DNA from: Candidatus Thorarchaeota archaeon
GTDB lineage: Archaea > Asgardarchaeota > Thorarchaeia > Thorarchaeales > Thorarchaeaceae
Length of the DNA: 64,000 bases
Assembly: GCA_046758445.1 (NCBI GenBank)
Contig: JBHIAE010000001.1
Span: forward strand, 64,001 to 128,000
Direction: 5' to 3'
Shown here: piece after piece, positions 11,802 to 64,000 of the stretch
How the letters are laid out: the number at the start of each line of letters is the position of its first letter
Position numbering within the stretch: position 1 is the first letter of the stretch
Translations under genes and position numbers: made by a program
The notes under the pieces: model-generated
Told to the model about the DNA's origin: nothing
Database searches by the model: none
What the model saw: only the letters and a program-made list of their open reading frames with translations

Positions 11802-12812
11802 TTGAAGGGCCTTCTGCCAGCAGACGAACCGCGAGAAACTATCCTCAAGTCCAGTGAGACGTCTAATCAAGACTACGGATTCTCATCACTGGATAGTCTT
11901 CCAATCGAATACTTGCTTGAGAACAGTGTGATTACCATAGACAAGCCTTCTGGGCCAACGAGTCACGAGGTAGCTACATGGGTTCGCAGAATCTTGCATG
12001 CTGAACGTGTCGGACACGGTGGAACTCTCGACCCGGCAGTAACTGGAATACTGCCCACTGGAGTTGGCAATGCTACCAAGGCGATGCAGGCATTATTGCC
12101 TGCAGGGAAGGAGTACGTCTGTGTGATGGAACTCCACCGCTTAGTGGATCATGAAGAAATCCGTAGAGTCATCAACGAGTTCGTTGGCAAGATCTATCAG
12201 AAGCCTCCCCTGAGATCATCTGTCAGAAGGGTCCTCCGGGTGAGGGAGGTCTACTACAACGAGATAATCGAAACTAAGGGTCGTCTTGTTCTGTTCAGAG
12301 TGGGATGCCAAGCTGGAACGTACATTCGTAAGCTCTGCTTCGACATTGGAGAGGCCCTGGGCTCGGGGGCCAATATGAGAGAACTCCGCCGAACTCGTGT
12401 TGGACCGTTTCGAGAGGATGAGCATCTTTGCTCGCTCTATGACCTCAAAGATGCCTACAGTTTCTGGAAAGAAGAGGGCGACGAACATGAGCTTCGGAAG
12501 TACCTCCTGCCACTTGAGTTCTGTTTCAGCCATCTTCCTTCAATAGAAGTTCGTGATAGTGCAGTAGATGCAATCTGCCACGGTGCGAATCTCGCGGCCA
12601 ATGGAATTGTTAGTCTGAGCAGTGGTCTGAGAAAGGGCGACATTGTGGTTCTGAAGACCTTGAAAGGCGAGGCAATTGCCATTGCAAAGAGTTCTGCTAC
12701 ATCAGATTCAATGGCCAAAGCGAAGAGTGGCATCGTTGCGACAATTGACCGAGTGTTGATGGAGAGAGGGCGTTATCCTTCGATGTGGAAGAAGCGAGCT
12801 GCCGAGAAGTAG
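11802..12812 (+). CDS. cbf5: H/ACA pseudouridine synthase Cbf5 (uninterrupted)
   Basis: DKPSGPTSHEV, GHGGTLDP, GTYIRKLC, ELRRTR, C-terminal PUA domain. Confidence 0.97.
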   Translation: MKGLLPADEPRETILKSSETSNQDYGFSSLDSLPIEYLLENSVITIDKPSGPTSHEVATWVRRILHAERVGHGGTLDPAVTGILPTGVGNATKAMQALLPAGKEYVCVMELHRLVDHEEIRRVINEFVGKIYQKPPLRSSVRRVLRVREVYYNEIIETKGRLVLFRVGCQAGTYIRKLCFDIGEALGSGANMRELRRTRVGPFREDEHLCSLYDLKDAYSFWKEEGDEHELRKYLLPLEFCFSHLPSIEVRDSAVDAICHGANLAANGIVSLSSGLRKGDIVVLKTLKGEAIAIAKSSATSDSMAKAKSGIVATIDRVLMERGRYPSMWKKRAAEK

Positions 12813-12863: not shown

Positions 12864-13214
12864 TGGCCTTGGAGCAGAAGCGCAACTGACGGTACTCGTC
12901 CCTCGGGATGAGAGCTGAGGAAGCTCCCGACTCCTATCGACACCAGTCCTGCGCGAGCAGGGAGGCGAGAGCCTTGCTCTGGGAACAGAAACGACACCCC
13001 CGAGCCGGAGATGACAATGATGCAGCATCTGAAGCTGCTGAGGATTGGTTCGGACCGGTTGAAACGGCCCAACACTGGGGAGCAATCTCAAGAATACATC
13101 TGTGAGTGTCGATGTGAGATGTAGGGTAGAGAGCACAGTTTGATGTTGCAAGATCCCGTTTTGGCAACAAAGCGGAATGGAACAGAATCGGGGCTACTCT
13201 CTGCACCAAGGCCA
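12864..13214 (+). ncRNA. rnpB: RNase P RNA
   Basis: P1 helix TGGCCTTGG/CCAAGGCCA; CR-I GAGGAAGCTCCCGA pairs with CR-V AACAGAATCGGGGCTA (P4 with bulged U); internal ACAGAAAC, TGAAAC and GGAGCAA conserved motifs. Confidence 0.92.
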
Positions 13215-18114: not shown

Positions 18115-18315
18115 TACTGCCCCCTACATTGCAATAGCCATCTTCTCAGATAAGAGTTGAGAACTGAGAAAGGAATCCAAACGATAACCATCTCATCTGC
18201 GCCACGACTCAAGAGCCTTACAGCTGTGAATGACCTGGGTTCTGAAGCCAATATTCTTGTCGTACTATTGTTTCAGGGAAAAAGTGAAAAGCACGACAAT
18301 ACAGTGACTGTCCAA

Positions 18316-18485
18316 GCCCGGATAGCCAAGCGGTTCGCTCATGACATTCCGTCACGAACCTGCAGACGGCGGCAGCCTGGAGCAGGCCAACTGGTCGAAC
18401 AGGCAGCTGCTCTCCTTCTAGGAGGCATGAAGGTCGATCATTCGTGGTCGGTCTGGCTAGAGTTCGAATCTCATTCCGGGCGCCA
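18316..18485 (+). tRNA. tRNA-Ser(GGA) with three introns (about 18336-18365 in the D-loop; 18383-18404 at 37/38; 18430-18460 in the T-stem)
   Basis: Acceptor GCCCGGA/TCCGGGC plus G-CCA; D-stem GCC/GGC; anticodon stem GCAGC/GCTGC with loop CT-GGA-G^A; variable arm CTCCT/AGGAG; T-arm ATG^AG-TTCGAAT-CTCAT; mature length 87 nt after removing 83 nt. Confidence 0.9.
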
Positions 18486-18487
18486 CT

Positions 18488-18703
18488 TCATTCCTTTCTG
18501 CCAATCCTCAAACCGATGAATATCAGGGCAAGAGTAAGTGCTGTCAGTCCAGTCGCCAGCACAGGAGGTAGTGCCCTCTCTGGATAGAGTGGGCCTTCGA
18601 CTGCTGCGGTATTAATAGTCCAAAGGAGAAAGCCTGCAATGAGGAACAAGATGATTGAGTCAATCACTTGACCCATGCTGACCTTCCTGTTTCTCTGGCT
18701 CAT
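18488..18703 (-). CDS. Small two-TM membrane protein
   Basis: 71 aa, two hydrophobic helices, GAGGGTGA RBS-like sequence upstream. Confidence 0.6.
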   Translation of the reverse strand: MSQRNRKVSMGQVIDSIILFLIAGFLLWTINTAAVEGPLYPERALPPVLATGLTALTLALIFIGLRIGRKE

Positions 18704-55829: not shown

Positions 55830-57362
55830 CTACACTTTGAGGAAAGACCCCGTCACTTCTTCTACGCTGGACACTATCTTCCCGAGGTCCATCAGCTCAC
55901 GAATCCTGACAATGTCTGAACTTAGGGGTCTGTCATCTTCCAGTTTCGGAACCACATTCCTCACAGTCGTGTATGCTTTCATCAGGGGTTCGGATGGTTT
56001 CAGTGGTGCCAAGAGATCTATCGCCTGGGCCGCACACATGTATTCAATGGCTATGACATTCTTCGCATTCTCAAGAATCTGTAGACCTTTCCTGGCCGCG
56101 ATTGTACCCATGCTGACATGATCCTCTTGGTCTGCGCTGGTTGGTATCGAGTCTACACTTGCAGGGTGCGCGTAAACCTTATTCTCAGAAACGAGAGCCG
56201 CGGCAGTGTATTGGGCAATCATCATTCCTGACTTGAGTCCACTCTCCTTGGTAAGAAATGCCGGCAGGTCGCTTAGATTTGGATTTACCAGCCTGTTAAT
56301 CCTTCTTTCCGAGATATTTGCCAGCTCACAAATCGCAATCCCTAGGAAGTCCAGTGCTAGTGCAACAGGTTGTCCGTGGAAGTTCCCACCAGATATTACA
56401 TCTCCTTCTTTTGAGAACACCAAAGGATTGTCCGTAGCAGAGTTAATTTCAGTTTCCAGTACTCCACGTACGTAACGAATCGTATCAAGAGAGGCTCCTA
56501 ACACTTGAGGAATGCATCGTAGAGAATAGGCATCTTGGACCGTTCCACAATCTGCATGAGAACGATTGATTTCACTGTCTCTTAGGATATCGAGCATTGC
56601 CTTGGCAATGTCAATCTGTCCCTTGTGGGGACGTGTGCCGTGGATTCTCTCATCCATTGCGGCTCGCGTTCCCCTTAGAGCTTCAAGACTCATTGCAGCA
56701 GCAACACTTGCATCTCTCATCAAGACTAGCGAATCATGAACGGCAATGGAGCCAACTGCGCACATCGGTTGTGTGCCATTGATGAGGGCAACTCCCTCTT
56801 TTGCCTCAAGAACAATCGGCTGGACGCCGGCCCGTTCCATAGCTGTTGCCCCATCGAGCTGCTCGTCCTCGAAGTAGGCCTCTCCCTCACCAATCATTAC
56901 TAAGGCCATGTGTGCAAGGGGGGCGAGGTCTCCACTGGATCCTACTGACCCCTGTTGGGGGATGACTGGAACAATGTCCGAATTCAACATTTCAACCAGG
57001 GTTTCTATGACCTTCAATCGAATACCAGAGAATCCCTTTGCGAGTGCATTTGCCCTTAGAAGCATCATGCCCCTCACAATCTCTCTGGAAAAAGGTGGCC
57101 CAACTCCTGCACTGTGACTACGTATCAGATTGACTTGTAGTTGAAGGATTTCGCTTTTGTCAATTGACTCCTCGGCGAGATCCCCGAAGCCGGTGTTCAC
57201 TCCATAGACGACGCGACCTTCCTTCAGTGCCTTCTCGATCACTTCTCGACTACTCCGAATTCCTTCAATTGTGGACTTAGCGAGCTTCACTGGTTCTTGA
57301 TGTCTTGCGACCTTAACGACGTCGTCAACGGTGAGACTGACTCCATCAATCATTACAGTCAT
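55830..57362 (-). CDS. hutH: Histidine ammonia-lyase
   Basis: YGVNTGFG, GSVGSSGDLAPLAH, KEG.ALINGT, QDAYSLRC, GGNFHG, QEDHVSMG. Confidence 0.96.
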   Translation of the reverse strand: MTVMIDGVSLTVDDVVKVARHQEPVKLAKSTIEGIRSSREVIEKALKEGRVVYGVNTGFGDLAEESIDKSEILQLQVNLIRSHSAGVGPPFSREIVRGMMLLRANALAKGFSGIRLKVIETLVEMLNSDIVPVIPQQGSVGSSGDLAPLAHMALVMIGEGEAYFEDEQLDGATAMERAGVQPIVLEAKEGVALINGTQPMCAVGSIAVHDSLVLMRDASVAAAMSLEALRGTRAAMDERIHGTRPHKGQIDIAKAMLDILRDSEINRSHADCGTVQDAYSLRCIPQVLGASLDTIRYVRGVLETEINSATDNPLVFSKEGDVISGGNFHGQPVALALDFLGIAICELANISERRINRLVNPNLSDLPAFLTKESGLKSGMMIAQYTAAALVSENKVYAHPASVDSIPTSADQEDHVSMGTIAARKGLQILENAKNVIAIEYMCAAQAIDLLAPLKPSEPLMKAYTTVRNVVPKLEDDRPLSSDIVRIRELMDLGKIVSSVEEVTGSFLKV

Positions 57363-57538: not shown

Positions 57539-59586
57539 TTATGACCGTAGCTCATTCTTTACTAGTTCTTCTACTAGGCCGTCGGGAGGAACGAACGGAA
57601 GTGTGATGTGACCACGGCCGTCCATCAACCTGTTCCAGTCTACTGCCGTTTCAACTGCGTGTTCATTTCTGGCCCATGCTCTGCGGGCTACTCCGCCCAT
57701 TACATCCCAGTCTAGCGCAGAACGAATGACAGTGTCTACTCTCTCGCTGCCATCAAGAACCAAGCCAAAACCTCCATTGATGGCCTTCCCCGTACCCACA
57801 CCACCGCCGTTTGAGAGGACTGCCAGAGTCATGCCACGGGCCACATTTCCTGCCCAGCATTGGTGAGCCATGTCGCTTGTGACATTACTGCCGTCTCGAA
57901 TGTTTGCGGTTTCTCTGAAGGGGGAGTCTGTGCCTCCTGTGTCATGGTGATCTCTTCCAAGCATTATAGGTCCAATCTTTCCTTCTCGCACCTCCTTGTT
58001 GAACTCTAGAGCAATATTGGCGCGTCCCTTGGCATCCGCATACAGGATTCTGGCTTGGGACCCAACTACTAGAGCATTCTTCTCAGCATCCCGAATCCAA
58101 ACATAGTTGTCCCTGTCTTGGCCTCTGCCTTTCGGATCAATGCATGACATCGCTACCTTGTCAGTTTCGACCAAATCCTCGTGCTTCCCACTGAGGCATA
58201 CCCATCTGAACGGTCCATACCCGTAGTCGAAGCATATTGGTCCCATGATGTCCTCGACATAGGAAGGGAATATGAAGCCGTCATCTGTGTTCTTCCCGTT
58301 TCTCGCAATTGCCAAGACGCCTGCATCGAAGACTGCCTTCATGAAGCTGTTGCCGTAGTCCCAAAAGTGAGTGCCTCTTTTAGTCATGGTCTGGATAAGT
58401 TCGAACTGCCTACGGAGTGATTTGTCTACAAGGCTCTTGAACTCGTCACGGTCACGTTTCAATAGCTCTCTTCCCTCTTCAAATGTCACTCCTTGAGGAG
58501 TATAGCCGCCATTGTACACATCATGGCAAGATGTTTGGTCTGACGAAAGCTCGATAGGAATCTGATTGTCCACAACGTATTGCCATAGATCAACAACATT
58601 GCCAAAGTATCCTATAGAGATTGGCTCATTCTTCTCTCGGTATTCCGTGACCCACTCGAATACCTCATCGAGTTCGGCAGAATGTTTGCTGAGCCATCCT
58701 TGTTCATACCGTGTAACGATTCGACTCTTGTCAACCTCGGCGATTACTCCAATGCCGCCTGCAATCTCAATTGCCTTTGCTTGTGCACCACTCATGCCTC
58801 CCAAGCCAGAAGTAAGGAAGACCCTTCCGCTAAGGTCTTTGTCTTCTGCTATCCCCAGATAGAGTCTACCGGCATTCAGGAGTGTGATATAGGTCCCATG
58901 GACTATCCCTTGAGGACCAATGTACATCAAACCACCTGCTGTCATTTGGCCATAGTTGACTGCGGAGAGCTGGGCTGCTCGATGAAAGTCCTGAGGTGTA
59001 TCAAACATACCCACCATGAGTCCATTTGTGACTATGATCCTGGGCGCATCACTGCGAGACGGGAATAGACCGAGAGGGTGACCAGAGCTCACTACAAGTG
59101 TCTGATCTGCGTTCATGGTTTCCAAGTACTTCATGATTAATCGATACTGCATCCAGCTCTGGCAGACTTGGCCGCTTTCGCCGGGCGTGATTAGAGAATC
59201 CAATCACGCTCTCCGTAAGTGACCAGCTCGTACGGATACAGGGCGACGTTGAAGTCCAAGTTGTTATCAATCATCAGCTGAAGAGCCCGTGCTTCGAGAA
59301 TCCCGTGATATTGGTCGACCGGTTTTGCGACAATCCGGCCTCGGGGTCGGTATCTATATCCATAGATTCTTCCTCTTGTCATCAATTCAGTCAGAAACTC
59401 AGGTGCGAGGTGCTCGTGTAGTTTTGGGTGAACATACCTTAGGGCGTTCTTGACTGCAAGTATCGTGTCTTTTTCACTAAGATTGAATCCTCTATCTGGA
59501 GCTCTTCTTATCTCTGGGTCGAAGATAGGGTCGGGAGGCAGCTTATCAGATAGTTTGATTCTCATAGCTTCAGAAGGGTCATACAT
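57539..59586 (-). CDS. hutU: Urocanate hydratase, long type (671 aa after splicing); two exons, 59586-59211 and 59178-57539
   Basis: GRIYGYR, NNLD..VA.YP.ELVTYG|ESGQ, YGQMTAG, IGPQGIVHGT, GLGGMSGAQ, SDQTSCH, GRDHHD; 2048 nt minus 32 nt = 672 codons. Confidence 0.93.
59179..59210 (-). other. Putative BHB-type (tRNA-splicing-endonuclease) intron in hutU mRNA, 32 nt
   Basis: Intron AGCGTGATTGGATTCTCTAATCACGCCCGGCG; 11-bp inner stem, bulges AGA and CGA, central ACGG/CCGG, outer GTCACTT/AAGCGGC; excision restores the frame. Confidence 0.82.
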
Positions 59587-59644
59587 CTAACCATCACTCC
59601 GGTGATTGCTGTTCCTTCAATGTAGCACCTTCATAAACAAGTTG

Positions 59645-62600
59645 TCATGAAGATTGTTGAGCTTCCGAGTTTCCATCAGACGCGAACCTGTAACGTTTCA
59701 CGATCCTACCAATTGTGGCGATGTTTCTTGAGATGCCACGAGTTCTCCATAGGTGTAGTCCGATCTGACCAGGAGATAAGCCGGACTCACTTAGCGTGCG
59801 GATTATCTCAATCTCTTGACGTGTTACTCGCTTACGTTGCGGCCTTGCTGCTAACATATCGCAAAGCTCCGATAGACTCTTGGTTCTGCCCAATGCGTTC
59901 CTGAAAAGCGGGAGCTGTGCTGCCCGCCTGATAGAATCGTGACGCACTATTTCGACGCCTGATGGATGTAGATAGGATTTGACACCAAGTGATTCCAAAA
60001 GGGCTTGTGTAAAAGGGCCATTCGAGATAGATGAGATTCCCGCGCGTTGAGCAACTGGAGAGGCGTAGCCATCTCCATCGGCCAATCCTTGGACGAATGC
60101 AATGCGGGACTGTTCGGATGATGCAAGAATCCAATCACCTATGAATGGCACATGGGTCTTCTTCTCACTAGGATTGAGTCCCAAAACAACCTCTCGAAAC
60201 CAGACGAACAATGGGCTGGAAACAAACAGTTCCCAAACCTCGTCCTTAGACCTCTTAATTCTCAGGATTCGATTAGGCTTCACGCGTGAAAAAACTGAAG
60301 AAACGTCATCCAAGGCCTGTTTAGACCAAGTATAGCTCTTGCTCAGGAGACCCCTTAGGGAAAAGGATGTTTTACTGGTAATTTGAACGTAACCATCTGA
60401 CACGGCAAATCCTATTACATACATAAAGTCCTGGAATCTCATTCGCATCTGCCGAAGTACCCTAAGAACATCAGAAACGTTGGTGAGCGTTTCCGGAACC
60501 TCGACCCAGTCCGAGAATACTTGCCCGTCTATTCGAGTAGGCAGCCACTTCCAATTCTCGACTGGCTCCTCCCTTGGGACTCCTTGCAGTAGACGTAGTA
60601 TTCTGGGCAGTCTACTTTTGGTCCAGTGATAAACAGTAGATTCGTCAAGACTCAACGCCTCCGCAATCGCCTTTTGCGATATACCTGATTCGTACATGTC
60701 TAAGAACTTGTAATACTTAGAGCATGACTCTTCAATCTCATTGTAGTTGCTCCAGCTTCTCAAATGCGGTGCGATGTAGATTCTATCCAGTAATTGCAGA
60801 ACACCTTTCATTGATCCGGCTGGTACCTTCTTTCTCAGTTCTGCTACTACTTGCCTGTTTCTGGCAGCTCGTTCGATTTGTGCGCAGATCTCAGGTCTTC
60901 CTCCGTCTACGACCCATCTTCTTGCTTTGCCGGCGGATACTCCGATATCCTCCGCCGCCTTTCGAAGTTCACTCCACCTGATGGTCTTCCTACCACCAAT
61001 CGCTTCGAAGAGATCTAAGTATGCTCCGAAGTCAACGATGAGCGAATCAATGTCTTCCAGTTTCGCCAATCCAGAATAGCTTTGAGAGATTGTTCCACGG
61101 AGTTGGGATACAGAGGATATCGTGAAACCGTCTATCTTGAAGTCGTGGAGATTGACTGTCAACTTCCCAGATTGAATCATACTTCTTTCAGAGTTCGGCA
61201 TGGCAGCAATTCGGACTGGCCAAGGAAGAACTCCATCGACCCACCTCTTTGTTGTGGTCGGCTTTAGTCGGAGCTTGCGGTCAACATCAGACTGCAGCAT
61301 TCCACTCTCAAGAAAAGACAAGGCCTCAAAGTACAGTCTTAGTCTGCTCCACTGCCTCTCAGCTGACGGCCACAGTGATATGGAATCGGAAGTCCCGGTT
61401 TCTTCCAGGATTCTGCGAACATCTTCGGCACTCTGGACATCTCCAAGCTGTTGTCGAATATTCAAAACTCTCTCCTGATTCTTGAAGACCTCATTCAAAT
61501 ACCGGAAGACCGTAGGGAGTTTCCCCTTTAGGACCCAGTTCCTTGCAGTATTGGCTGATATTCCACTTTCTTTTGCAATTGTTGAAACATCCACATCTTC
61601 AATCGGGTCTTGCTCAGAAAACGCCGACATAACTTGGAAATAGATTTGTGCCTGTTTCATCCATTTACTGAAGTTGCGGTTTTGCCTCAGTCCTGGAAAC
61701 TGTCTGTCGATTATGCTTTCAAGCTGGTCATAGGATTCTATTCGTTTACTATTGAGCTCAGGCAAAAACGTCGCAAGTTGTTTCTCTCTAGTCTTCTTGG
61801 CGGCAAGTCTGCCAACCAGGGCCGGTATTCTCTCGCCGCGGAGCCAGGCCAGCACTTCATCTTCAGGAATCCTGTATTTCAGACTCAGCTCTTTGATTTG
61901 GTCATGCCTGTACCTCTCGCGGCCGTTCCGGACTATTGTGTCAAGTTCTCCTCTCTTCCTCATTGATGAGAGTTCAATCCATGCCCTTGCCTCCTCAAGT
62001 TTCTCGTTGAAGTAAACCATTTGACGAATTTCAGGATCATTCTGAGCTTCTTCCAGTTCTTCCTCCGACGTCGGATAGTCCTGTTCGAAATGAGCTCGGA
62101 CTAACTGACCCATCAGCCAATCGCCCTCACGATTCAGCAGTCTCCTGAGCGCCTCGGGCATGGACCTACCTTCACTCCAGTCCCTCGCGGTGTCTTGGTC
62201 TAGGTCAAACTCCCCGGCCAGTTCCTCAATGTCTGTTTCCTCATCTCCCTGCTCTTTCAGCGCCTTTCTGAAACGAAGATAGTTCTCAACCTCTTCCATG
62301 GTCTCTTCGTCTTCAAGCATTGATTCAAGACCATGTTTCCGTGCGAGTTTCTCGAAGTCTTCTTCATCCTCTACTAGCCCTCGGAGATACTCTCTGATAG
62401 CCTCCTTCAGCTCCTCATCAAGTTCATTGAATATCTCTCGGAGATACCTCTGCCAGTCCTCATCCTCGCGCGAGTAGTGCTCTGGCCAATCCGATGATTC
62501 AGTATCACTCTCAGTCGCCTCAGAGTCCTCCTCACCCTTATCATGATTGGTCTTCTCTTCTGCTGATTCTGGATGCTTCTTGACGTGCTCGTACTCTTCT

Positions 62601-63478
62601 TTATGCAGAGATTCGCCCTGTTCAGCCCTGATACTCTCTTGCGATTTGCTATCGGGTTTCTCTTCAGATGTTTCTGTTTTGAGTTCGGAGTGTTTCCTGC
62701 TTTCCACAGATTCTTGGTCTTCAGGGTCCAAGGCCTCAGACTCTTCGGTTTCGTTCCCCCTCTCCGATAGTTCTTGTTCCTTCTCAGTCGCAGACGCACT
62801 GCCTTCGGGCAGGCCGGGTTTCTCCGACGGCTCCGTGTCTTCTTTCTGCGATTCACTTTCAGGTTCCGCTACAGTTTCGGAACCAGCGCTCTCGTTGGCG
62901 GAACTCTGTGTGGCGTACATCTGTCCGCTACCGTCATCGAAGTACGAATGATCATCCTCTGTTCTCCTCTGCCCTGTCTCTCCATCTCCCTCCTCATCGT
63001 CCCCCTCCTCCTTCCCATCAACTGATTCACCAATGTACTCCATGACGTCTTCGACGAATTGTTCACGCCAGCGTTTCTTCATATCTTCTGGGTCCACACC
63101 TCGCTTGTCAAATTCGTCAAGGATCTTCTTCTCGAGATCGTCGTACTTCTCCTTGTCAGCAGTTTCTTCTCTCTCTCTGCGAGCCTCTTCCCTAGCTTCC
63201 TCTCTCTCTAGTTCCCTCCTTCTGTAGTCTTCATATGCCTCTCGTCTTTCCTCTTCCTCACGTTCCAGGTCCTTTACGGCATCTTTGACGGAGTCCTCGG
63301 GCTCTTCGGGATACTCTTCTCCTTCTTGCTCTTGATTCTGATGGGTTTCTTCATCTTCCCTCTCTCTCTCAATCTGGTCTATAATCTCGCGCATCTGTCG
63401 TCGAATCTCTTCTTCGTCTTGAGACTCACGCTGACCTTCTTGTCCTCGTCTGCCTCGTTCACTTCCCTCCCCCATCAT
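59645..63478 (-). CDS. 1277-aa protein: acidic low-complexity N-terminus, about 6 HTH-like repeats, double LAGLIDADG motif, C-terminal HTH
   Basis: YVIGFAVSDG and AFVQGLADGDG; repeated W..G..P HTH ends. Confidence 0.75.
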   Translation of the reverse strand: MMGEGSERGRRGQEGQRESQDEEEIRRQMREIIDQIEREREDEETHQNQEQEGEEYPEEPEDSVKDAVKDLEREEEERREAYEDYRRRELEREEAREEARREREETADKEKYDDLEKKILDEFDKRGVDPEDMKKRWREQFVEDVMEYIGESVDGKEEGDDEEGDGETGQRRTEDDHSYFDDGSGQMYATQSSANESAGSETVAEPESESQKEDTEPSEKPGLPEGSASATEKEQELSERGNETEESEALDPEDQESVESRKHSELKTETSEEKPDSKSQESIRAEQGESLHKEEYEHVKKHPESAEEKTNHDKGEEDSEATESDTESSDWPEHYSREDEDWQRYLREIFNELDEELKEAIREYLRGLVEDEEDFEKLARKHGLESMLEDEETMEEVENYLRFRKALKEQGDEETDIEELAGEFDLDQDTARDWSEGRSMPEALRRLLNREGDWLMGQLVRAHFEQDYPTSEEELEEAQNDPEIRQMVYFNEKLEEARAWIELSSMRKRGELDTIVRNGRERYRHDQIKELSLKYRIPEDEVLAWLRGERIPALVGRLAAKKTREKQLATFLPELNSKRIESYDQLESIIDRQFPGLRQNRNFSKWMKQAQIYFQVMSAFSEQDPIEDVDVSTIAKESGISANTARNWVLKGKLPTVFRYLNEVFKNQERVLNIRQQLGDVQSAEDVRRILEETGTSDSISLWPSAERQWSRLRLYFEALSFLESGMLQSDVDRKLRLKPTTTKRWVDGVLPWPVRIAAMPNSERSMIQSGKLTVNLHDFKIDGFTISSVSQLRGTISQSYSGLAKLEDIDSLIVDFGAYLDLFEAIGGRKTIRWSELRKAAEDIGVSAGKARRWVVDGGRPEICAQIERAARNRQVVAELRKKVPAGSMKGVLQLLDRIYIAPHLRSWSNYNEIEESCSKYYKFLDMYESGISQKAIAEALSLDESTVYHWTKSRLPRILRLLQGVPREEPVENWKWLPTRIDGQVFSDWVEVPETLTNVSDVLRVLRQMRMRFQDFMYVIGFAVSDGYVQITSKTSFSLRGLLSKSYTWSKQALDDVSSVFSRVKPNRILRIKRSKDEVWELFVSSPLFVWFREVVLGLNPSEKKTHVPFIGDWILASSEQSRIAFVQGLADGDGYASPVAQRAGISSISNGPFTQALLESLGVKSYLHPSGVEIVRHDSIRRAAQLPLFRNALGRTKSLSELCDMLAARPQRKRVTRQEIEIIRTLSESGLSPGQIGLHLWRTRGISRNIATIGRIVKRYRFASDGNSEAQQSS

Positions 63479-63987
63479 TCGCCCGTTTCTCCGTCAAGTG
63501 CCTTGGTAACATGATTGAACACATCCCGGTCCTTCTCGGTGTCAAGATATTCGAGCGCCAAGTCTAAGACGTATAGGTTTGAGAGTGAGCTTCCGCCACC
63601 ATGTATCTCTGAAGTCTTGCGAATCAGTTCCGTCAGTGCACCGATGTCCTCCTTGCCTAGGTTTTCGCGGAAGTATCTCTCAAACTCTCCACTCTCGACT
63701 GCAGCCCTCATCCGTTCTCTGCTTTCCCGAGGGATTCGGTGTGACCAATCGTGATTGTCCGGCACTCTTGTAGTCGTTAGAAGGTCCATTATGTCCTCAG
63801 GCAGGGGCTCTGACTCTCGAAACTCAGGGTGCTCATCGAAGACCCTACTCATGTGATTCTCGACGATGTCATCTCCTGTATCCTCCTCTGGAACCTCGCC
63901 ATGGATGAACCATCTCAGAGGGCAAATCTTCACGTTCTTGGGTTCTCCCTCGTGCTGAAGGTATATTACTGCCTCTCCTACCTGCAT
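63475..63987 (-). CDS. Hypothetical acidic protein coupled (ATGA overlap) to the LAGLIDADG protein
   Basis: 170-aa ORF with AGGAGG RBS. Confidence 0.7.
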   Translation of the reverse strand: MQVGEAVIYLQHEGEPKNVKICPLRWFIHGEVPEEDTGDDIVENHMSRVFDEHPEFRESEPLPEDIMDLLTTTRVPDNHDWSHRIPRESRERMRAAVESGEFERYFRENLGKEDIGALTELIRKTSEIHGGGSSLSNLYVLDLALEYLDTEKDRDVFNHVTKALDGETGE

Positions 63988-64000
63988 TCCTCCTATGTGG

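Follow-up and report, generated by a model that had tools for sequence, protein, structure and literature searches.

A predicted spliced mini-intron in the urocanase gene of an Asgard archaeon as the possible seam of a homing cassette

The hutU locus and its 32-nucleotide insert

The DNA analysed here, referred to throughout as the window, is a stretch of 64,000 nucleotides from a Candidatus Thorarchaeota archaeon (contig JBHIAE010000001.1, positions 64,001 to 128,000), and the element in question is a 32-nucleotide (nt) insert in its urocanase gene, hutU, which can be drawn as a tRNA-type intron with a motif of bulge-helix-bulge (BHB) form. An original prediction, made from the letters alone, had proposed that the insert is spliced out of the hutU mRNA. 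The gene, its insert and its downstream neighbour are laid out as follows, where the exon and intron borders are those of the predicted splicing event:

59211-59586, minus strand: hutU exon 1, codons 1-125 and the first base of codon 126
59179-59210, minus strand: hutU BHB mini-intron of 32 nt, with the 5' cut predicted behind the second base of the bulge AGA and the 3' cut behind the second base of CGA
59171-59223, minus strand: whole BHB motif of this intron, with an outer helix, a central helix of four positions, two 3-nt bulges and an inner hairpin of 11 base pairs (bp)
57539-59178, minus strand: hutU exon 2, the remainder of codon 126 through the stop codon, with Pfam matches to Urocanase_N (profile positions 44-126), Urocanase and Urocanase_C
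55830-57362, minus strand: hutH, histidine ammonia-lyase, intact and directly downstream of hutU (Pfam Lyase_aromatic, E = 2e-205)

Read as it stands, the gene is broken in two. The first open reading frame (ORF; 59586-59191, 131 amino acids) terminates at a TAA (59193-59191) within the insert, just as had been claimed for the unspliced message, and the rest of hutU is read in the frame of 59203-57539. Deleting 59210-59179 joins the two parts into 671 stop-free codons, which is the length that had been foreseen for the urocanase, with the junction ...ELVTYGESGQV... in the protein; its YGESGQ is the consensus of the intronless relatives (TAY GGN GAR AGY GGN CAR), and the RNA would run across the predicted junction as UACGGAG followed directly by AAAGCGGC. 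The Pfam profile Urocanase_N is matched from position 3 to 42 before the insert and resumes at 44 (to 126) behind it, and hutU is therefore cleanly interrupted rather than decayed. This domain is complete only once the exons are joined, and the joined protein has all of its domains in full (Urocanase_N, Rossmann-like and C-terminal, with E values of 5e-31, 1.5e-79 and 1.2e-76, respectively). Judged by its reading frames, HutU would be makeable only if the 32 nt are removed; otherwise a fragment of 131 residues would result.

The minus strand from 59223 to 59171 reads exactly as the original prediction had written it. In the corresponding RNA the outer helix (GUCACUU/AAGCGGC) has six of seven positions paired, one of them G-U, and the central helix (ACGG/CCGG) has three pairs and an A-G mismatch. 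The two bulges, AGA and CGA, of 3 nt each, lie on opposite strands, and the inner hairpin of 11 bp (one G-U) is closed by a loop of 3 nt. The 66-nt intron region folds with -29.9 kcal/mol (z = -4.07), a stability matched by none of 200 shuffled sequences. When the fold was constrained to the BHB geometry its energy was -25.9 kcal/mol, compared with -29.1 kcal/mol for the minimum-energy fold; since the strict BHB is thus dearer by 3.2 kcal/mol, the motif is a 'relaxed' one, which is the word that had already been used for it. Motifs of this general kind occur often by chance: in this genome, hairpins of 8 bp or more in BHB geometry, with three or more of the four central-helix pairs, number 4206 in 6.5 Mb, or about one per 1.5 kb of single strand. 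Comparative evidence aside, the chance of finding one at the exact position that restores both the frame and the consensus is roughly 1 in 1500. Two genome-wide scans for BHB motifs that would join ORFs placed hutU near the top, among hundreds of chance matches, and were too noisy.

Inserts at two sites in related genomes

The comparison covered 86 genomes of the family, in which G000 denotes the genome of the window. hutU is present in 81 of them, with about 60 full-length copies uninterrupted, and inserts of 29-32 nt are found in 12 genomes from eight genera, at one of two sites. Site 1, the codon interrupted in the window, is occupied in four genomes of three genera, and site 2, between NYGQ and MTAGG, in eight genomes of five genera (loci L010, L028, L019, L020, L027, L024, L025 and L026):

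Site 1: G000, G101 and G099, insert of 32 nt
Site 1: G063, insert of 31 nt
Site 2: G014, G023, G017, G092, G057, G056 and G094, insert of 30 nt, in frame with a stop
Site 2: G003, insert of 29 nt, frame-shifting

In every one of the 12 cases, cutting behind the second base of each 3-nt bulge gives back the frame and the exact consensus protein of the family, and this single rule fits the frame-shifting lengths of 29, 31 and 32 nt as well as the in-frame, stop-containing length of 30 nt. Among 301 genomes sampled across the phylum, inserts of the BHB kind in hutU were seen in this family only.

Some further interruptions are of a different nature. The hutU of G060 (locus L029, on G060:C15) owes its split to a simple frameshift of 1 nt in the stretch TTTCCGTTCTC, near codon 160, and was discarded as an intron candidate. 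In two other families of the phylum, hutU (G308:C5:4783-6414 and G208:C636:658-2277) has a single in-frame stop, TAA and TGA, with no added length, which could be due to sequencing errors, pseudogenes or recoding. In addition, contigs of four more genomes (G013, G064, G089 and G090) end exactly at site 2, where populations perhaps mix intron-bearing and intronless alleles.

Stem covariation, which had been put forward as a check on the intron alongside homologs with and without the insert, is clearest at site 2. The central helix has its full four base pairs in six of the eight introns there, and across the eight sequences 95.3% of the cells pair, compared with 33-44% for slid partner columns. 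Both sides have changed in seven of the 16 pairs, including one exon-intron pair of the central helix, in which the intron has CCGU where the Tyr codon is TAC, and CCAU where it is TAT (TAU). Site 1 offers just three distinct intron sequences and one clear compensatory pair; the introns of G000 and G101 are homologous and differ mostly by transitions, one of the differences being compensatory. The two sites have UUACGGA(G/C)A in common, as would be expected if an intron with CCGN as the 3' strand of its central helix were spliceable only behind ACGG. A joint alignment of the site-1 and site-2 introns came out of structural register and was dropped.

Two explanations would do without splicing by denying either the interruption of translation or the insert itself, and together they are extremely improbable. 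The first, a bypass in which the ribosome hops over the insert from GGA to GGC, finds suitable glycine codons before the gap and at its end at site 1 (GGA...GGC in G000 and G101, GGA...GGA in G063); however, the site-2 inserts obey the BHB rule and have no matching landing codon, and for the latter reason translational bypassing was rejected. The second is an artefact of assembly or a chimeric contig. The original prediction had allowed that DNA reads might lack the insert, but the hutU stretch is identical, insert included, in three separate Logan assemblies (13-29x), all of them from one hydrothermal-vent study that may also be the source of the G000 genome, and Logan contigs extend from exon 2 across the intron and 2.7 kb into a nuclease gene that lies upstream (described below). 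Inserts at the same codon are also present in genomes from other studies and sources, including Thorarchaeota SMTZ1-45. Since the genomes are metagenome-assembled, some chimerism is conceivable and counts against our reading to that extent; three independent pairs of genomes, compared below, and the separate assemblies speak against such chimerism. In two runs the Logan contigs break off some 2759 nt upstream of the start of hutU (window position ~62345), in a repeat-rich part of the nuclease gene, probably at an assembly break caused by the repeats.

Another possibility is that hutU is a pseudogene, the insert being an unspliced scar of an island insertion and HutU no longer made. The unspliced frame does end after 131 amino acids, and the support for splicing is comparative. 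On the other hand, the 671 codons contain no other defect and the Urocanase_N match continues across the join, so that the exons are otherwise intact, as the original prediction had held; nor does any other intron-bearing copy of hutU show a further defect. Relaxed selection on the exons, which would have been the mark of a pseudogene, is not what we see: against the closest relative, G007, the ratio of nonsynonymous to synonymous substitution rates (dN/dS) of exon 2 is 0.085, and exon 1 has proportions of nonsynonymous and synonymous differences of 0.14 (pN) and 0.86 (pS, saturated). A scar would also have to account for inserts of four lengths (29, 30, 31 and 32 nt) that all follow one cut rule and that, in 12 copies and eight genera, have kept exact frame restoration and compensatory pairing. 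We therefore consider a pseudogene very improbable.

The enzymes that a BHB intron calls for are encoded in G000, which has a gene for the RNA ligase RtcB (589.7 bits) and two genes matching tRNA_int_endo (EndA; 108.8 and 80.3 bits) at the following places:

G000:C1:41817-42071: EndA paralog
G000:C7:9600-9857: EndA paralog
G000:C6:22854-24164: RtcB

Two separate EndA subunits suggest an endonuclease of the heterotetrameric type, which, according to PMC5829648, is one of two types that accept non-canonical introns. Many tRNA genes of G000 have introns of 30-36 nt according to ARAGORN, whose intron borders are too approximate for a comparison of geometry. In the window itself, for which the original prediction had described tRNA-Ser introns that the relaxed BHB of hutU would match, neither ARAGORN nor Rfam found a tRNA, not even when the thresholds were relaxed over 18200-18600; by eye, hairpins such as GGTTCG...CGAACC, in the size class of the hutU intron, can be made out at 18316-18485 on the plus strand. 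The window also holds an archaeal RNase P RNA (12870-13208, plus strand; Rfam RF00373, 175 bits), and cbf5, which had been described as uninterrupted, is indeed so in this genome (window 11985-12326).

Taken together, these comparisons make it very probable that the hutU insert is a BHB intron that is spliced. Several points tell against this conclusion: the BHB is a relaxed one, whose central helix has three pairs and an A-G in G000 and just two pairs in G101; on the sense strand, G-U pairs outnumber A-C pairs by 12 to 7, which does not alone prove a structure of RNA rather than DNA; and the case for splicing is comparative, with the exact junction and the circular intron as predictions. The broader claim that Asgard archaea splice the mRNAs of metabolic genes with EndA and RtcB thus stands in part: a BHB-type intron lies in a coding gene and genes for both enzymes are present, while the removal of the intron is backed strongly but indirectly, by the 12 inserts at two sites, which all restore the frame by the BHB rule, and by covariation and purifying selection.

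Recombination at the intron and the LAGLIDADG gene upstream

The intron coincides with a sharp change in the ancestry of the DNA. In three close pairs of genomes with and without an intron (G000 and G007; G101, site 1, and G018; G014, site 2, and G001), identity is ~0.9-1.0 downstream of the intron and ~0.55-0.8 upstream of it, the upstream exon itself reaching only ~65-75%; the change of identity lies no more than about 30 nt from the intron. Between G000 and G007, for example, exon 2 and the 3 kb downstream are ~90% identical, exon 1 is ~65% identical, and the DNA further upstream is unrelated. The break between G014 and G001 follows site 2, about 240 nt deeper in the gene, and not site 1, and pairs of genomes alike in their intron state have no identity break of this kind. 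Trees of the three segments of hutU are likewise incongruent across the sites, with the exons 1 of G000 and G063, which both have a site-1 intron, as sisters. The hutU intron is a recombination junction, with exon 2 as the native part of the gene and exon 1 as a 'foreign' part.

This foreign exon belongs with an accessory island. In the intronless G015 the conserved neighbours of hutU stand 0.4 kb upstream of it, and in G000, where there are seven, the distance is 17.4 kb, a synteny that is seen with proteins only and is invisible at the nucleotide level. This makes the intron the right-hand border of an island of ~17.8 kb, of which the window contains one part:

59179-64000, minus strand: right-hand part of the accessory island (~17.8 kb in all), with the intron as its right edge, running beyond the window to about G000:C1:141000

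In G101 a remnant of native hutU (codons 1-92, with a protein 92% identical to that of G018) lies upstream of a nuclease gene, which makes up practically all of the DNA inserted between it and the new exon 1. Its layout indicates that nuclease gene, new exon 1 and intron were inserted as a unit that pushed the old exon aside. The remnant is itself broken by ~270 nt at codons 27-29 (L037:2899-3171).

In G000 the corresponding gene ends 59 nt upstream of the hutU start:

59645-63478, minus strand: free-standing gene for a protein of 1277 amino acids with several helix-turn-helix (HTH) domains and a C-terminal double-motif LAGLIDADG domain
59648-60616, minus strand: LAGLIDADG nuclease domain and terminal HTH, residues 955-1277

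Pfam finds LAGLIDADG_3 in the 1277-residue protein with 31.5 bits (cut-off 22.5), and the same family (PF14528) exceeds the cut-off in five homologs. The C-terminal 323 residues contain two LAGLIDADG motifs, ...SDGY... and ...GLADGDGY..., whose acidic residues are invariant. A search for homologous proteins with the nuclease returned two relatives only, and a sequence search of the PDB gave no match, so that a search by fold was needed. In Foldseek, the AlphaFold2 model of the LAGLIDADG domain (mean confidence score, pLDDT, of 77) is matched best by two endonucleases of archaeal introns, I-Tsp061I and I-DmoI (E = 3e-4 to 5e-4, target TM-score 0.55-0.60), and by two of inteins, PI-PfuI and PI-SceI. 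On the strength of this model the protein would be a homing-type nuclease, with a putative activity and target.

The N-terminal 560 residues of the protein (window 61799-63478, minus strand) are absent from the homologs in G101, G063 and G094 and have a 46%-identical paralog in an ORF of 970 amino acids (G000:C84:5553-8465, L057) that has no Pfam match, and the 1277-residue protein may be a fusion. A paralogous LAGLIDADG-HTH gene is found at G000:C51:13-4558 (L056), with a gene for a HerA-like ATPase before it; ATPase and LAGLIDADG-HTH protein may form a conserved two-gene module.

With respect to its distribution, a LAGLIDADG gene lies immediately upstream of hutU in four of the 12 intron-bearing loci (G000, G101, G063 and G094), whereas nine intronless loci all lack one there; for site 1 the count is three of four genomes. 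The fourth, G099, has an exon 1 and an intron of the G101 type without the nuclease gene. Because the intron coincides with both the recombination junction and the LAGLIDADG gene, it points to an origin in a selfish element.

A homing-cassette model, its precedents and its meaning

We think it likely, by analogy with collaborative homing, that the spliced BHB mini-intron is the seam of a homing cassette. In this model the cassette (the ~17.8 kb island in G000) would carry the nuclease gene and its own diverged exon 1, and would have replaced the native 5' part of hutU exactly up to the intron site. The LAGLIDADG nuclease would cut intronless hutU at this conserved site, and repair from the cassette-bearing allele would copy nuclease gene, exon 1 and intron together. 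Once in place, the intron would hold the two halves of the DNA target apart and so prevent re-cutting (immunity), while splicing would keep HutU functional. All three parts contribute to the splicing substrate: the 5' strand of the outer helix and that of the central helix belong to exon 1; from the intron come one bulge base, the hairpin of 11 bp, the central helix's 3' strand and two further bulge bases; and exon 2 adds the remaining bulge base together with the outer helix's 3' strand. EndA, with its two paralogs probably as a heterotetramer, would cut behind the second base of each bulge, and RtcB would ligate the exons to encode the 671-residue urocanase with its YGESGQ. Nuclease genes would decay later and leave orphan introns behind, which would account for most of site 2. 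That a nuclease-driven cassette is what explains the presence of the intron is a somewhat less secure proposition, which we hold with moderate confidence.

The principal alternative accepts the spliced BHB intron and takes its link with the LAGLIDADG gene as a coincidence: an integrase or transposase might have used the hairpin as an end or att site, the site might be a recombination hot spot, or an ancestral intron might have been lost often. Three observations favour it, the first two of which also count against the cassette. Seven of the eight site-2 genomes, as well as G099 at site 1, have the intron and no LAGLIDADG gene within about 6 kb; with eight such loci the link is not obligatory, and loss of the nuclease gene must be assumed. 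The LAGLIDADG-HTH family occurs in 35 of the 86 genomes, in up to four copies each and mostly not at hutU, and 20 other copies have no clean mini-intron downstream, with matches at noise level only. The island of G000 also holds other genes, including one for a HerA-like ATPase of the kind that accompanies the C51 paralog as well. Two further points count against the cassette: no native remnant of exon 1 was found in G000, and a non-catalytic DNA-binding role of the WhiA type is possible for the 1277-residue protein, WhiA standing at rank 50 in the Foldseek list. Set against a coincidence are the position of the nuclease gene, directly upstream of hutU in a third of the intron-bearing loci and in none of the intronless ones, the G101 insert, which is essentially this gene alone, and the fact that no integrase was seen. 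On balance, we regard a coincidental link as unlikely and retain the homing cassette.

A regulatory role had been suggested in the original prediction, in which EndA/RtcB splicing would gate histidine catabolism in the manner of HAC1 or XBP1. Splicing would admittedly be obligatory for HutU, and the surrounding hut genes are intact; however, about 60 relatives run the pathway without an intron, no sensor or condition-dependent element is evident, and the introns are patchily distributed and tied to recombination junctions and the nuclease gene. Nothing in the locus points to regulation, and we judge this idea, which the position of the intron at a recombination junction beside a LAGLIDADG gene does not favour, to be quite improbable.

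Several known systems resemble parts of the proposed cassette. In the searchable literature, BHB introns in archaeal coding sequences are documented for cbf5 only, in Crenarchaeota (Desulfurococcales and Sulfolobales; PMC2738675), and splicing of this pre-mRNA intron has been shown experimentally. The hutU intron is similarly short, BHB-defined and located in an archaeal coding sequence, would depend on the same tRNA-splicing endonuclease and ligase, and shares a patchy pattern of gain and loss. It differs in that its host is a metabolic gene rather than one for an RNA-modification enzyme, in an Asgard archaeon of the Thorarchaeota; that two sites are used within one gene; that it lies at a recombination junction beside a nuclease gene; and that its splicing is, as yet, predicted.

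The closest parallel in logic is collaborative homing, which Zeng, Bonocora and Shub (2009), as described in PMC6083498, reported for a group I intron in cyanophage psbA and the free-standing endonuclease F-CphI. In both cases an intron without a nuclease gene of its own sits in a conserved gene and adjoins a free-standing gene for a homing-type endonuclease, and the logic proposed is the same: the nuclease cuts the intronless allele where the intron inserts, the presence of the intron guards against self-cleavage, and repair moves both of them jointly. Unlike the psbA intron, which is a ribozyme, that of hutU would be a 32-nt BHB intron spliced by proteins; the nuclease is of the LAGLIDADG type, the setting is an archaeal chromosome instead of a phage, and a whole diverged exon appears to travel with the cassette. 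Cleavage and protection are here proposed only.

Archaeal rRNA and tRNA introns such as those of I-DmoI and I-Tsp061I, the best structural matches of our nuclease, also combine a BHB-spliced intron with a double-motif LAGLIDADG enzyme. There the nuclease gene is inside a long intron of an RNA gene, whereas at hutU it lies outside, upstream of the host gene, and the intron is too short to contain any gene and has an mRNA as its host. In fungal mitochondria, the mobile ORF elements (mORFs) provide a case in which a nuclease gene travels with a substitute for a portion of its target gene. Free-standing endonucleases of T4-type phages home without introns (PMC2790892, PMC2988022). hutU shares with both of these a displaced native part left behind as a remnant (in G101) and sharp breaks of identity at nuclease-associated sites; it differs from them, where the outcome is an in-frame fusion or a target diverged to immunity, in having a spliced mini-intron as its seam.

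The tRNA genes of Asgard archaea are known to be heavily interrupted, and the route by which their introns arrived 'remains open' (bioRxiv 10.64898/2026.10.13.758758). The hutU intron shares with them the phylum, the size class (30-36 nt in the tRNAs of G000) and the dependence on a BHB; while that census concerned tRNA genes only, hutU shows a concrete footprint of arrival, in the form of a sharp seam between native and foreign DNA, an island, a nuclease gene next to hutU and an exon pushed aside. The single coding gene documented so far in the searchable literature is thereby joined by a metabolic one, from the archaea most closely related to eukaryotes, in which two independent sites have received introns and the covariation is clear. 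The locus suggests a route by which BHB introns could enter protein-coding genes, and three recombinant proteins and two DNA substrates would be enough to put the question of intron arrival to the test. A host pathway of RNA repair could be exploited in this way so that a large mobile element does no harm when it inserts into an ORF, which is relevant to hypotheses on the first spread of introns into protein-coding genes. More tentatively, and with rather less than even confidence, we propose that the BHB mini-introns of Asgard archaea are delivered into conserved genes as seams of homing cassettes or islands driven by free-standing LAGLIDADG nucleases, each of which brings its own copy of the exon that lies between nuclease gene and cut site. 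The intron would be an immunity device that splits the DNA target, is removed from the RNA by the tRNA-splicing machinery of the host and persists once the nuclease gene has decayed. If this were true generally, the cassette model would explain why protein, rRNA and tRNA genes of these genomes contain so many orphan mini-introns, and would supply the missing route of their arrival.

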